DNA from: Octopus vulgaris
Taxonomy: Eukaryota
Direction: 5' to 3'
Length of the DNA stretch: 64,000 bases
Assembly: GCA_951406725.2 (NCBI GenBank)
Contig: OX597815.1
Location: 131,688,001 to 131,752,000, forward strand
Shown here: positions 8,867 through 54,505 of the stretch, one piece after another
Position numbering within the stretch: position 1 is the stretch's first letter
Layout of the letters: every line of letters starts with the position of its first letter
Translations under genes and position numbers: made by a program
Notes under the pieces: model-generated
Databases searched by the model: none
What the model saw: only the letters and a program-made list of their open reading frames with translations
What the model was told of the DNA's origin: nothing

Positions 8867-9826
8867 AAAGACATAGAATTTAGTTAAATTAGAACAGAGG
8901 GACACATTAGTATAATTATACCTAAAATCTCCAAGAAGCTAAGGAGATAAACAAAGAACATGTTGTACCGACAACAGCATAGCCGTAAATAAAATTTTCA
9001 AGAAGACACTGCTGCCACTGATGTTTTGTTTTTTAATCACTAAAATCATGATGAAGTACATATACAATTTAGTAACTTCAATAGAGAAGATTTATAGAAC
9101 ATATGTTATAATTCAAGAAATTAAAAATTGTTTATTTACTTAATTAGCTTGTGTCTTTAATCATTTATACCTAGTATTAACTAAAAGAAAAATGAATGTT
9201 GTAGGGTATGCTATCTACGCACTAATTTTAAACTATGAGGTATATTATACATTTTAAAACTCAAGATCAATAAAGTGATACTTTCTATAATATATTTGAA
9301 ATCTATATTATAAATCTTCATTTAATATTAGTATATGGCTAGCTTGTCCTTTTAGCAAAAATTATCTTTTCAACTAATACTAGGTTTCAGCTCTGATAAT
9401 TGTAAGCTAAATAAATTAACAAATTTTAGCTCATAAATTATTATACATTTTCTAGAAATACTTGCTATTAGAGTTAATAATGTATGAATATTTTATTATT
9501 ATATTATGGTTTTTAATGCTAACTGATCATTTTATAATTGGTGCTATTGTAATTTTTATAGCGGCCTTAAATAAATCTAATCCTTGTACCCCTATTAACT
9601 CATACACAACTTCTATAAGCAATAATAAATCTCTGAACGAGATGTAAACAGTAAGCGCTCGACAAAGTATACTAGCCATCTCAATATGGCTAACCAATAG
9701 GGGTGGGTGTTACTGTAGCTTTTTAGCCACAGGAGATCATCGTCTCCAGCTGGCTTTAGACACAATTACTGTGCCCTTATGATATTTGCAAAGGGAGGTC
9801 ATCCCCTCTCGTAAACCTAAGTGATA

Positions 9827-9871
9827 CGCATGGACTGCACTTTCGAGATTATTGTCTCTTGTCAACACACG
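9827..9871 (-). ncRNA. Type I hammerhead, U3-A8 variant, stem III C15.2 changed to G
   Basis: Minus strand CGTGTG-TTGACAA-GAGA-caataa-TCTC-GAAAG-tgca-GTC-CATGCG. Confidence 0.7.
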
Positions 9872-9904
9872 GTAATCACCGGTTTTCGATGAGGAGATGA
9901 TTAC

Positions 9905-9949
9905 CGTGTGTTGACAAGAGACAATAATCTCGAAACTGCAGTCCATGCG
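9905..9949 (+). ncRNA. Type I hammerhead, U3-A8 variant, apparently intact; predicted cleavage after 9943
   Basis: Stem I CGTGTG/CATGCG (2 GU pairs), core TTGACAA, stem II GAGA/TCTC, GAAAC-TGCA-GTC with palindromic stem III. Confidence 0.85.
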
Positions 9950-10262
9950 TATCACTTAGGTTTACGAGAGGGGATGACCTCCCTTTGCACATATCATAAG
10001 GGCACAGGAATTGTGTCTAAAGCCAACTGGAGACTATGATCTCCTGTGGCTAAAAAGCTACAGTAACACCCACCCTTAGTGGTTAGCCATATTGAGATGG
10101 CTAGTATACTTTACGTTGTCGAGCGCTTACTGTTTACATCTCGTTCAGAGATTTATTATTGCTTTCAGACCGTTTTTCGAAATCAGTGACAATAGTTACT
10201 TGGAAAAAACATTAAATAGATAGTCGCAAACAGGTCTCTTCTCATCGAAAACCAGTGATTAC

Positions 10263-10307
10263 CGTGAGTTGACAAGAGAAAATAATCTCGAAACTGCATT
10301 CCATGCG
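10263..10307 (+). ncRNA. Type I hammerhead, U3-A8 variant, tandem copy with G16.2 changed to U
   Basis: cgtgag-TTGACAA-GAGA-aaataa-TCTC-GAAAC-tgca-TTC-catgcg; 358 nt downstream of the 9905 copy. Confidence 0.7.
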
Positions 10308-12003
10308 TATCACTTAGGTTTACGAAAACTTCTATAAGGTTATACCGGTATCTCCACAACTTAAAATTAGTTCAATTTTATTAACTCAGTATATAGTTGA
10401 CATGTTCTTTGACCTCAGTTGCCCCCCCCCCCCCCCGCCTTATTAAATACCTGTTAATTCCATTTGATCAATTTCAATGGAAACCATATAATATGTTAAT
10501 ATTTTAGATAAGTAATAAGTATATAAATATTAATCTATTAATCTATTTCTTTGCAATTTCCTTTTCCTCCCTCTATTGTGGTAAAAATTTGGTATATACT
10601 CATAATATTCAAAGACGTGGTATCATGTATTTACAATTTTCATTCTTAGTAATCTTCTTGATTACCCTAAAATTTTAACCTTATACAGTATGACGATATT
10701 GTTTGGAATGATCTTTAAAAATACTTGATTTTCTCTTTCTTAATTGGCTCTACTCTCCTGATCTTATTATTTATAAGGACCTTCATATAAATAACTTTTC
10801 TAAACAAGTACCACTAAGAAACTATAAATATCATGTAGGGAGTAATAATAATAACTTCTTAAAACTATAAAATAATCCTAAATTAAAAAAATATTAGTGT
10901 AAAATAGAATTGTTCCATAACTTAAATATTCCTTTACCCGATACCAAACATCAGTCTTTTAGAGATATTAGCTAAATAAGTAAATATAATTTTCAGTCTA
11001 ATATATTTTGAATTATTATACTTTTTTTTTGTAAAAAATCTTCTCTATTGATGTTGACAAGCTACATATACTTTACTATAGTATTAGTAATTAAACCACT
11101 TTATTCCTTTTCTATGGTGCTCTGCGCTTGATTATTTAATTTTATAATTAGTCTTTATTTATTTATAAAAGTATTCTAAGCTTTGTATCTCTATAAATTC
11201 ATACTTAGCTTACATAAGACTATACTGATATATTCCTTACTCATATAAAAAAAAATGCTCAGGTTTAGAAATTTATTAATATATAGTTAGCATGTTCTTT
11301 TACCTCAAAACTCTTTTATTAATACCAGTAAATATCATCTTATACCATCTGATGAGTTAGTATTTAAGTATACAATATGTAGAAATATTAAGCTATTCCT
11401 ATATACTTTCTTTTCCACCCTCTATTGTTGTAAAAGTTTGATATATACTCAAAAGTATTCATAAATTTGTATCCTTATGTTACAATACTCTTCTGAATAA
11501 TCTTTTGAATAACTCTAAACTTTAACTGTATACAATATAGCAACATTGTTTTAAAGTACTTAAGTGTAGTGCTACATGATAAGACTTCCCCTGTTTCATT
11601 ATCAATAGTCTGCTAGTGGGTGACCCCTTAATTATCAGCTAACATCTTGTTTTAAGTTTTCACTTACTAACCCTCATAACATTGCTTCTAATAAATCTTG
11701 ACTTTTATGACTATACCATCTAGAATGTCTGTCTACTACCTCAACTCTGCCCCAAACAGATACTGCACTCTGTTTCTCTCAGCTTTGAATGTACAAGGGA
11801 TTTGATAAAGTAGTCTATAAATTAAAAGTAACCGCTTAAACAAAAAAAATCAGTGGCAAGCAGTGTCTTCTTGAAAATTTTAGTTACGGCTATGCTGTTG
11901 TAGGTACATGTTCTTTATCTAAAATCCCCAATTTCTTGGAGATCTTAGGTATAAATATACTAACGTATCCATATGTTCTAATTTAACTAAATCCTATGTC
12001 TTT

Positions 12004-30599: not shown

Positions 30600-31740
30600 A
30601 GATGGGGCAATTAAAAAAATTAATGATGTCCTACATACATATACCGACACCAGGAGACCTTAAACTAAGGCCTACTGTAGCTGGACACTACCCATCTTCG
30701 CTTATACCTGATGGGATAAAACATGCCAGAAAAGTAAAAGACAAACAGTTAATGATGTCAAACAAAATAACACAACCACTCTAGAATTATTACCTAAAAT
30801 TATTACCTACATACAACCCCAGAAACAACGAACCCTATAAGACTATTATCCAAAACCTTCCAATACTACATAAGGACCCTAATCTATATGAAATGCTAAG
30901 CACCCATAAACTTATTAAAAATAACAAACAGCCAAAATCACTGAAGTGGACACTCGCAAATAGAAAATTATACTAAAAAGTAATGGAAGCAAGAGTTAAA
31001 CACTGTGAACGACCAAACTGTGGAACATGTTACAACATAATTGGAGGTCCAGAATTCTATTTTAAATAAGGACAAATATTTGAAATGAAAACTGACTTCA
31101 CTTTCGCCTCTGAAAACCTCATCTTCGTTATGTTCCTGTTGCAGTAGGAACTATACAGGTTCCACAGGAATATTCCTAAGACGTAGGTCTACACAACACA
31201 AACAACAAATTTATCACCCACAATACCGTAAAATACCTCTTAATGGCCACATATGACAGATGTGCTAATGAACGCCAACCACAATTCACAATATAACCAC
31301 TATACCAATGCACGGAAAAGGCCTCAAATAAAAAATAACTAAACCAAGAGGCTACATTTATTGAAAAATACAAAACAGAATTTAACATGAATATATAATG
31401 AACTTCAAAAATAAAAAAAGGCAGCCATAAAATAATAGAAGAAAAGATTTACGTCCCTTTAGCTCAGAAATACTGTTTTCCCTTATTTTTCTCTTTAGCT
31501 AAAAAAACAAAACATTATCCCCCTTGAGTTGTACTCTCGTGCATAACAAGCAAAACTATTGCATACCTACACAGGATTAATCAAAACCTTATGATATCAT
31601 AACATTGAGTCATGATTAGTAACGCGTAACCGGTTGACTCTGTACATAGTACATATTGTAATGGACTAAACAATCTTTATCTACTCAAACAGGATTTCTG
31701 TACTTTTCAATTGAAAAATAATTATACATATAAATATATA
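30600..31740 (+). mobile_element. Internally deleted Penelope-like element (RT start, linker, GIY-YIG, pLTR)
   Basis: DLKLRPTVAG; TYNPRNN...KQPKSL; CERPNCGTC; ASENLIF; related to the 52500-54260 element. Confidence 0.8.
31607..31640 (+). ncRNA. Minimal hammerhead relic with A3-U8 core
   Basis: GAGTC-ATGATTA-GT-aac-GC-GTAA-CCGG-TT-GACTC; perfect 5-bp stem I; A13 mutated to U. Confidence 0.6.
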
Positions 31741-42263: not shown

Positions 42264-42534
42264 TGAACGAGATGTAAACAGTAACTGCTCGACAACGTAG
42301 AAACTGCAGTCCGTGCGTATCACTTAGGTTTACGAGAGAGGGATGACTTCCCTTTGCAAATACCATAAGAGCACAGAAAGTGTGCCTAAAGCCAGCTGGA
42401 GACGATGATCTCCTGGGGCTAAAAGCTACAGTAACACCCACCCTTAGTGGTTAGCCATATTGAGATGGCTAGTATACTTTACGTTGTCGAGCAGTTACTG
42501 TTTACATCTCATTCAGAGATTTATTATTGCTTAT
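42264..42534 (+). mobile_element. Second locus of the 9.6-kb HHR element family, truncated inside the HHR, with a 36-bp inverted leader
   Basis: 42300-42534 matches 9932-10163; 42264-42299 is the reverse complement of its own 3' part. Confidence 0.9.
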
Positions 42535-42550
42535 AATAATATAATATTAC

Positions 42551-51921: not shown

Positions 51922-53213
51922 TAAGTATGGAAAACAATTAAATTTTGGAAAGATTAAAAGAAAAGTTTTTTAAGAGATTATTTGAATAGTGCTCAAATAC
52001 AAGTAGCATTTTCCTTGTTTCTGCATGTTTCTCTCTCTCTTGTTTCCTCTTGTGGGTTCGAGGTCGTTGTGAATTCTTCGTAGGGAAGAAGAAGAAGAAG
52101 AAGAAGAAGAAGAAGAAGAAGAAGAAGAAGAAGAAGAAGAAGAAGAAGAAGAAGAAGAAGAAGAAGAATGCGGGAGAGCCATAACAGTAGTATGTTGAAT
52201 GGCCAACTGCCCCGAAGGTGAACCGCAGTGAATAACAGCATTGATTGAATTCCTGAAACATCTCTTTTGAATGTTTTGGTTATAAAACTTGCGTAGGTGT
52301 TATTCTAAATAGCAACAGTGGTAAAGTTGGGAAGGAGGTGGCGAAGAGGAAGAAGAAGAAAGAGAAGGGACAATAAGAAGGAATGTAGGTAGTATGATAG
52401 CAGTAAGGTGTTAATGGTCAAGTGACATAAAATTGGATCGTTATGGATTATAGCAGTCACTGGAACTGTTTTTTAATGAATTCTTGGGAATCTTTTGAGT
52501 GCATCATTTTTAATATTTGCGTGTTATTCTAAGGCCGTGGTGGATATGTCGTTTGTTGTAGGCGCCTTCAAAAGGGGTCTATATTTTGTAATAAAGAGAG
52601 TCTCTTTACTAATTCGTTGGCTACAGGTTGTATCGTCCCTGAATTGGTAGAGGGGAAAAATTCTGAAGCTTGGATTTTTGTTATTGACACAAAGGTCTAT
52701 GAGTTGGCTGAATGCTATTTTTCTGTTTTGGGGAATTTTGATCTGAAATCTGAGCAGAGCCATTCTTTTACATAGACTGGTTTTTGTTTGCCCTATGTAT
52801 TCCTCTCGACACCCAGAGCAAGTTAGTGCGAATATGAAGTTCTCCGAAGCACATGTGAAGTTCATTTTCACTGTGAAACATTGTCCCTGAAGGAGAGCTC
52901 TGATCCCTCAATTGAATTGACGCATATCCCACAGTTACGTCTTCCGCATTTTTTACTGACGGCGTCTGTGTTGTCGTTGAGCGTATTCAGGCTTGTGTTA
53001 GGAGACTTTTCATAAATTTAGGCTGTCTCTTGCTTTTTATCAAGGCGTGTGTTTTTGGAGGATTAAGGTCATTCTGTGGTCCTTTTTTAGCAGGGGAATG
53101 TTTTGACGGATACTGTCAAAGGCTTCATTGTTGAAAGGGTTGTGCGTGATGTATGTTAGGGCTTTTGGTTGTAAATCCTTCTTTAATTTGAGATGGCTGA
53201 GTTCCTGGATGTT

Positions 53214-53393
53214 GAGCAGCAGGAATAAAGCCACTGATGAGTCTAGATTTGCTGTATTTCCTGACAGTGGTCTAGTGTAGGTCTGGAGACTTTGTGATCA
53301 AGAATTTGATGTGAAAAGATTGCAGCCAATAATGAAACATGGCAGCTATTCTGTGATGGTCTGAGGAGCAATTTAGAGCAATGGTTGATCAAA
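53214..53393 (+). repeat. 180-bp copy of the neighbouring Tc1 segment 55384-55563 inserted in the PLE
   Basis: Identical apart from 2 substitutions by eye. Confidence 0.93.
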
Positions 53394-54505
53394 TGGTTGA
53401 AAGCATACGTCAATTAGTTCCTGGTAATGAGTGGGTAGTTTCTGGTAATGAGTGTATCCTTTAGTTCATGAAATCGTGTGTCTCTGATGTTTGCATTAGA
53501 AACTATAGCACATATCCTTTTTGCTAGGTTGAAGGGGATATTCATTCTGATGTATTTGGGGAGGCATGAATTGAGCGGTAGATATTGCTTGGAGTCCGTA
53601 GGCTTATAGTATATATCTCTTTCTATTACGTTGTTAGATTTCTTAATGAGGATGTCGAGGAAGGGCAGTTGTTGCTGGCTATATTGAATGTTTACGTCAA
53701 GTCCATTTAAAAGTGCTTGGATTTCTTTAAGTTTCTCCGTATTTTCATGCCGAAGAATGAAACAGTCATCCAGGTATCTCTTCCAGTTATTTTCTGTGTA
53801 GGAGGAGAGGAGAATGGGATGCCGTATTTTTCTAGAATCTTACGATAAAGACTAATTTCTAGAAATACAATGACTAGGTTAGCAAAGGAGGGGGCCATTC
53901 TCGTACCCATCGCAGTCCCCGATTTTTTTGGTAGAAGTTGTCTTTGAAGACGAAGCAGTTATTGTCCAGAATGAATTTTAGCCCTTCTATCACGAATTCT
54001 TTTTTGATGCGATGTGGGAGTTCGTTGGCGTAATTCTCTAGCCAGAATTGAATTGCCTCTATTCCTAGATTGTGGGAGATATTTGAATAGAGTTTGAATA
54101 CGTCGAAGGATACTAGTAGGGTGGTTTTGTTTATTGTTTTAAGAAGGTTATTGAGCATATCCATGTCGTCCCTTATATAGCTTTTGACATGCTTAAAGAA
54201 TGGTTTTAAGAGGGTATCTAAAAAATTACTGAGGCGGTGGGTTTCACATGCAGGACCCGCATTCTTCTTCTTCTTCTTCTTCTTCTTCTTCTTCTTCTTC
54301 TTCTTCTTCTTCTTCTTCTTCTTCTTCTTCTTCTTCTTCTTCCCTACCAAGAATTCACAACGACTTCGAACCCGCAAGAGTAAACAAGAGAGAGAGAAAC
54401 AGACAGAAACAAGGATAATGCCACTTGTATTTGAACACTATGCAAATATTCTTTTAAAAAACTTTTCATTTAAGTTTTCCAAAATTTAATTGTTTTCCAT
54501 ACTTA

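Follow-up and report, generated by a model that had tools for sequence, protein, structure and literature searches.

The insert under study lies at positions 9608–10338 of a 64,000-nt stretch of Octopus vulgaris DNA (the window) and consists of an element at 9620–10326 between two plus-strand copies of the 12-mer AACTTCTATAAG, at 9608–9619 and 10327–10338; the last three nucleotides of the left copy (AAG) also match the element end. With window positions 9898–10255 numbered as u1–u358 of a repeated unit, the element resolves into two head-to-head arms. Arm 1 (9617–9897, minus strand) comprises u340–u358 followed by u1–u267 and stops at the downstream end site of the repeat family, site B (u261–272). 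Arm 2 (9898–10326, plus strand) comprises u1–u358 and again u1–u70, stopping at u70, an atypical internal point and not the other family end site, site A. On its way it reads through both A (u216–223, 10113–10120, plus strand) and B (10158–10169, plus strand) and includes, at 10242–10255 of the plus strand, the unoccupied counterpart of an insertion site used in other copies by a two-ORF LINE and its derivative. A first-pass annotation had described a foldback of ~260 bp, and we recovered it as arms of 262 and 267 nt (9617–9878 and 9898–10164; 2.7% different over 262 sites) around a 19-nt loop (9879–9897), which is u340–u358 on the minus strand. There is no microhomology at the junction between the loop and arm 2. 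The arms have a rare allele at u150 in common, while their other differences are scattered and mostly private.

The element interrupts an older AT-rich host repeat (9300–10720) with 613 candidate places. After removal of the element and one 12-mer, the host repeat could be aligned to 13 of 14 paralogs with no gap over the site, and because these empty paralogous sites restore a continuous repeat, the 12-bp direct repeat is a true target site duplication, as first proposed. A contig that joined both flanks (run X6) differed in its junction letters and most likely represents a host-repeat paralog; the contigs assembled from other runs contained other family copies only, none across the focal locus. 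The host sequence at 9300–9619 and 10339–11500 is unclassified and AT-rich and has an internal period of ~400 nt. As also annotated earlier, the element has no real ORF: neither an RT nor a GIY-YIG ORF was found in it, the longest stop-free stretch is 72 aa, and the 17 ORFs of the window matched no Pfam family above the cut-off. Elsewhere in the window we observed a second, shorter head-to-head copy of the same family (42264–42535) and two decayed Penelope-like element (PLE) remnants, at 52569–54260 (minus strand) and 30662–31386 (plus strand), both unrelated in sequence to the unit.

Three U3-A8 hammerheads had been claimed for the insert. The two sense motifs and the antisense motif are there, each with the UUGACAA core, and the sense cores at 9911 and 10269 are 358 nt apart as described, but only the first copy is intact. 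Judged by sequence and fold, copy 1 (9905–9949, plus strand) is a type I motif with a 6-bp stem I, a 4-bp stem II, and a palindromic stem III of 2 bp with a 4-nt loop, and it is predicted to cut after 9943. Copy 2 (10263–10307, plus strand) is damaged by a C.U mismatch at 15.2–16.2, carried by its stem III ACUGCAUU, and by an A.A mismatch in stem I; copy 3 (9827–9871, minus strand, core 9865–9859) carries a G.G mismatch in its stem III AGUGCAGU. These changes are private or rare in the family columns, so the palindrome ACUGCAGU occurs once at the locus and not three times. Taking a type I motif to have a C/U-U-G-A-N-G/A-A core, GAA, NUH, a paired 3–8 position, and three stems, we recognized one in copy 1, in 68 of 95 sampled family-A motifs (a sample biased to intact copies), and in 11 of 32 family-B motifs; focal copies 2 and 3 failed this definition. 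Rfam hammerhead models at gathering score gave no match in the window or in loci L099, L184, L310, and L424. The 33-nt core is nevertheless above chance, since it has 47 exact copies genome-wide against none for the reversed control.

We searched the AT-rich and microsatellite-rich genome (2.8 Gb in 227 contigs) with the unit and obtained 2784 candidates. Exact matches of a 30-mer of the unit numbered 623 and those of an intact-core pattern at least 214, with none for either reversed control. The best 40–150 candidates were scored per search, and samples were chosen by similarity or exact motifs, which favors long and intact copies. The family occurs as dispersed monomers, dimers, and a ten-unit array (L099:1260–4881, contig C4) whose units differ at 0–4 sites and retain ten intact cores; the array stops at site A and has a 12-nt duplication on both sides. 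Two consecutive complete hammerheads, absent at the focal locus, where copy 2 is damaged, are present in this array and at L004. Besides the focal subfamily, A, we distinguished a subfamily B, ~74% like the focal unit, and a subfamily D (L298–L322) with 3030 candidates, top matches 97–98% alike, a U3-A8 core, and an ACAUGU stem III; more distant subfamilies also exist. Active RNA would more probably come from the young subfamily D than from the focal one. A non-coding unit of 358 nt, arranged in tandem and bearing one hammerhead, lies within the size expected of retrozymes (~150–450 nt), and the retrozyme-like unit proposed from the focal insert is, by sequence, well founded at the level of the family, with its monomers, its ten-unit array, and its conserved hammerhead. 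On such features the family qualifies as one of non-LTR retrozymes, and it is the useful part of the result; the focal locus is an ordinary decaying copy. Our literature search found no description of the 358-nt family, which Repbase entries or the supplements of PMC8557442 and of the preprint 10.64898/2026.07.22.740005 could hold.

The pairing of the motif is maintained among its copies. In an alignment of 45 motifs, 93.3% of the cells were paired compared with 84.0% after shuffling, and none of 500 shuffles reached the observed value. Position 3–8 was U3-A8 in 27 and C3-G8 in 17 of the 45 rows, and stems I and II contained two-sided changes; the number of pairs with a two-sided change (eight) was not above shuffles (186/500) in these 45 motifs from about four lineages. 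The stem III palindrome differs between subfamilies A, B, and D, in agreement with the dimer model of PMC4209133. The hammerhead and its palindromic stem III thus appear, across these roughly four lineages, to covary between subfamilies and to be kept through compensatory changes. The earlier idea that the palindrome allows the tandem copies to dimerize is in keeping with the family but not with the focal locus, where the palindrome occurs once and the tandem pair makes a poor dimer. A long rod around the hammerhead was predicted for subfamilies A (z −4.0 and −6.1) and D (z −5.2) and weakly for B (z −2.6 and −1.2); the antisense strand of A folds too (z −5.5), so the rod does not tell the strand.

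To describe how the copies are integrated, we compiled 90 loci and the array and dropped 25 overlapping duplicates. The resulting 66 insertions comprised 40 head-to-head, 26 direct, and no tail-to-tail copies, and 65 of them had an end at A (u214–224) or B (u260–273). All 30 head-to-head insertions with two canonical ends paired A with B; the focal copy (B and u70) is among the 10 of 40 with one canonical end. We then examined 32 further loci, including 13 selected for a pair of nearby opposite-strand matches; here 17 of 17 such insertions were again A+B, five had one canonical end, one was interrupted by a LINE, and nine were direct. Pooled, all 47 head-to-head insertions with two canonical ends had one end at u~218 and the other at u~266, the two sites being ~48 nt apart. 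Non-simple duplications of at least 8 nt bordered 23 of the 66 insertions compared with 2 of 300 mismatched pairs; at 25 non-simple sites the target duplications were 7–15 bp long (12 bp at the focal locus), and 29 of the 66 insertions adjoined (TA)n. The hammerhead cut site was read through in 57 of the 66, and 5' ends did not pile up there (4 of 106 ends at u44–50, none at u47). At subfamily-diagnostic sites, the arms of one insertion were discordant in 30 of 481 comparisons against 46% between insertions; tandem units agreed less (49/331), and some dimers, such as that at L003, mix haplotypes. Inner ends were unrelated in most insertions.

The A+B pairing of ends and the head-to-head inversion are the "tail" signature of PLEs. 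The foldback, found in 40 of the 66 insertions, is a by-product of integration and no special device. At the family level, the insertion signature is that of Penelope-like elements, and the earlier proposal of a non-autonomous RNA mobilized by a PLE gains support from these sequence traces. Counts of PLE-type end pairing did not turn up in our literature search.

In search of a helper, we looked for a coding PLE with a pLTR homologous to the unit and found none in 161 PLE-bearing loci, an incomplete sample covering several coding families; hence the helper is inferred from end geometry only. In this sample, the family members are also not simply the pLTRs of coding PLEs, one of the two outcomes that the first-pass annotation had named as refuting its own reading. 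One PLE family with an intact 781-aa RT and GIY-YIG ORF (L091–L097) also contains an overlapping ORF upstream and a U3-A8 hammerhead-like motif of its own. As a third PLE family has the U3-A8 core too, the variant is a common one in the genome. The further coding PLEs include older families and a near-identical young one (L098, L148–L177), in which ~100% identity between copies over 1.2 kb suggests current activity. This young family has only one 3' end site, at (TA)n, which accounts for 38 of 40 segment ends, and we take it to be Neptune-like from its motifs. A Hydra-type family with 16,423 candidates has the motifs RWK, DKT, and CxCX5C and a weak similarity to the 781-aa RT; it matched nothing in Pfam. 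Its ORFs (L288–L297, L258–L287) are ~950–1090 aa long with a long Asn-rich linker, and the family is larger than the under-3-kb Hydra elements of PMC8557442. One short and one long end were seen in 8 of its 12 two-strand loci, its two 3' ends being ~120 nt apart compared with 48 nt in the unit family. Set against the single site of the young family, this pattern points to a Hydra-type helper, which we regard as a best guess and not a finding.

Several loci considered as partners of the unit were rejected. At L098, a unit-like stretch starts ~600 nt past the PLE end and is absent from 39 other copies. At L200 (888–1737), a subfamily-B copy directly abuts, at its 5' end, a piece of PLE RT, possibly through a template switch. 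The case is single, and the unit is missing from 29 other loci of the PLE concerned. Separate neighboring insertions account for L281 and L049, as well as for L293, where a distant subfamily lies upstream of a Hydra-type PLE, and L316 and L089 contain old Hydra-type remnants with their own ends. The 1.9-kb spacing at L368 proved to be a LINE derivative, and PLE protein matches near family copies are incidental.

The LINE has a close relation to the unit. Two family copies are interrupted at u343–358 by LINE sequence with its own duplication. A hammerhead core followed 25–38 nt downstream of a 5.5-kb two-ORF LINE in 16 of 25 sampled loci and of its 1.6-kb ORF1-only derivative in 21 of 30, compared with 35 of 20,000 random positions; as the searches started from 3' ends of copies lying in units, and some composites may have multiplied as a whole, the fractions overstate the independent events. 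Several unit subfamilies serve as targets, which implies several independent insertions. The derivative had duplications of 10–18 nt in 14 of 21 loci, and the LINE inserts measured 5521–5540 nt in four loci. ORF2 encodes an APE-type endonuclease, an RT, and a zf-RVT domain (Pfam PF03372, PF00078, PF13966), and a zinc knuckle in ORF1 (PF00098) scored just below the cut-off. Full U2 genes directly follow 3 of the 25 LINE loci, copies at the 5' end of U2 snRNA genes were seen at L460–L464, and the U2 genes and the unit site have an ATCG...CGG-like motif in common. Where target specificity means that more than 20% of flanks are of one type, the LINE is target specific with 16 of 25. The insertions of LINE and derivative were seen at L004:512–1500, L368:1943–3611, and L388–L470. 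Tx1 LINEs targeting transposons or U2 are already known (PMC4494074, PMC4640811), and our literature search returned no report of a hammerhead repeat as a LINE target, although supplements and Repbase entries could hold one.

We consider it probable, with good confidence, that the focal insert is a decaying non-LTR retrozyme copy that was likely dead on arrival and that a PLE RT and GIY-YIG endonuclease likely inserted in trans. The enzyme would cut both target strands ~12 nt apart, and each nicked 3' end would prime a separate minus-strand cDNA on a shared source RNA, with one cDNA usually starting at site A and its partner at site B, before the two truncated cDNAs are joined head to head; in the focal insert, the arms would have started at site B and at u70, respectively. 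An RNA uncleaved at the hammerhead would serve as template, either a tandem transcript or a circle, and intact tandem copies elsewhere would supply RNA and self-cleave. Homogeneous multimers would fit a circular template, while mixed dimers would need a heteromultimer or a template switch. A Hydra-type PLE would be the most likely helper. Several of these steps have counterparts among PLEs: the Anolis element PAc cuts and extends both target strands, its tail is defined by two internal RT start sites, and its reverse transcription in vitro is independent of hammerhead cleavage (PMC11167929), and inverted 5'-truncated copies with a one-sided tail are standard for PLEs (PMC8557442, PMC3846280). 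The alleles shared by the arms may, instead of a common template, reflect conversion between inverted repeats.

An inverted arm could alternatively arise by fold-back self-priming of one cDNA, a reading suggested by PMC3846280, and not from two target-primed cDNAs. The shared alleles of the arms and the hairpin-like focal inner ends, only 19 nt apart, are as expected from such priming. A self-primed copy cannot outrun its template arm, however, and focal arm 2 has ~160 nt beyond the end of arm 1; since the arms run past each other's ends, fold-back priming alone cannot make them. With the outer ends A+B in 47 of 47 cases and the inner ends mostly unrelated, we consider self-priming unlikely. 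The first-pass annotation saw in the locus a cassette releasing the 358-nt unit, and an active cassette that gives a 358-nt circle and in which the foldback is a switch tied to editing or siRNAs would be in keeping with the intact copy 1, with a cut-to-cut monomer (9944–10301, plus strand) predicted to be strongly self-paired (z −5.5) with its ends brought together, and with the abundant circles of mussel retrozymes of 350–390 nt (PMC7229834). Two of the three hammerheads are damaged, however, among them the second of the two sites at which a unit would have to be cut out, which makes release of a unit unlikely at this locus. The stem III duplex with copy 2 is predicted to weaken from −11.1 to −7.6 kcal/mol, and even the hammerhead fold of copy 1 is not that of minimum energy (predicted −5.4 vs −9.9 kcal/mol). 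In a read-through transcript of the whole insert, copy 1 is predicted to be buried in the foldback (pairing probability 0.0). The claim that the foldback blocks the ribozyme is to that extent in line with the predicted fold, but a structure common to so many of the insertions is an integration by-product rather than a switch, and the arms are drifting apart through private changes. Read-through would produce long dsRNA here, as for many family copies, though any role for it would be hypothetical. The locus probably cannot release a circle and is most likely inert; that it works as an active cassette seems very improbable to us.

The other two alternatives concern the family and its helper. If the copies were 5'-truncated tail ends (pLTRs) of an unsampled coding PLE, there would be no independent 358-nt unit. 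Their architecture is the standard one of PLEs (PMC8557442, PMC3846280), only the best 40–150 candidates of each search were scored, and the subfamily-B copy at L200 is directly joined to a PLE RT fragment. Yet copies that reach further upstream run on into a preceding unit at a constant period, for up to ten units, the profile matches at L098, L281, L293, and L049 are separate neighboring insertions, and both the 39 other copies of the L098 PLE and the 29 other loci of the PLE family at L200, a single case, are without the unit. We find this explanation improbable, somewhat more so than self-priming. Mobilization of the repeat by the two-ORF LINE found inside many of its copies is hardly credible. 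The LINE is physically associated with the unit, and LINEs have been named as candidate helpers (PMC7229834), but it was inserted into the unit with its own duplication, whereas the unit copies stop at internal site A or B without the A-rich tail of the LINE and often adjoin (TA)n, a range beyond the targets of the LINE.

The family resembles both known retrozymes and the insertions of known PLEs. Like the non-LTR retrozymes (PMC7229834; 10.64898/2026.07.22.740005), it has a non-coding unit of a few hundred nucleotides with GC below 50%, a type I hammerhead with a 6-bp stem I, a 4-bp stem II, and a short palindromic stem III, forms from monomers to multimers, duplications longer than 4 bp, a self-paired monomer, and PLEs in the same genome. 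It differs in the U3-A8 core of subfamilies A and D and in its mostly head-to-head copies with PLE-type two-site ends, features absent from the examined sections of those papers; its circles are putative, and the 161 PLE-bearing loci contained no homologous pLTR. Eight of nine frog retrozyme dimers failed to cleave in vitro (10.64898/2026.07.22.740005), which weighs against our preferred reading. With the insertions of EN+ PLEs (PMC8557442, PMC3846280, PMC11167929) the family shares the head-to-head inversion, duplications of the 8- to 14-bp class, and AT-rich or (TA)n targets, and with Anolis Poseidon PAc the two internal 3' ends and a template uncut at the hammerhead. Unlike EN+ PLEs, it has no ORF, and its tail is ~48 nt compared with their 30–40; the end pairing is counted here (47/47 A+B), whereas those papers say only "often at one end". 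The minimal hammerheads of Schistosoma Cercyon PLEs (PMC4209133) likewise show U3-A8 core covariation, and dual hammerhead copies on opposite strands were noted earlier for these elements; the present family differs from Cercyon in its canonical-size stems, a real stem III, and a tandem non-coding unit.

The LINE resembles Tx1, Tx1-Mar, and Keno (PMC4494074, PMC4640811) in its ORF1 zinc knuckle, in an ORF2 with APE-type endonuclease, RT, and zf-RVT, and in fixed-site insertion in another mobile repeat and in U2 genes. Its targets appear to be different ones: a hammerhead repeat, where it lands 25–38 nt before the core, and U2 at its very 5' end. From its domains and targets we tentatively call it Tx1-like.

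Two testable additions emerge at the family level, the PLE-type end pairing and the LINE landing upstream of a hammerhead. The link between animal retrozymes and PLEs has so far rested on co-occurrence and pLTR similarity, and here the insertion scars themselves are PLE-type; the 47/47 end pairing makes the origin of PLE tails and inversions testable with the 358-nt RNA. The LINE target, if true, would be a new class for sequence-specific retrotransposons, possibly involving the borrowing of a ribozyme. In a three-tier arrangement, which we put forward as a speculation with more doubt than trust, a PLE would copy the retrozyme by two-site priming, and a Tx1-like LINE would land upstream of the hammerhead and borrow the flanking ribozymes. 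The PLE "tail" would then mark a two-primer reaction in which each nicked strand is primed at a different site of the RNA, and the LINE, also a user of U2, would cut its own RNA from read-through transcripts by means of the flanking ribozymes. We also observed that the inner junctions of the head-to-head copies at L001, L010, L027, L069, and L108 fall at u340–351, near the LINE target site and the base of an extended stem I.
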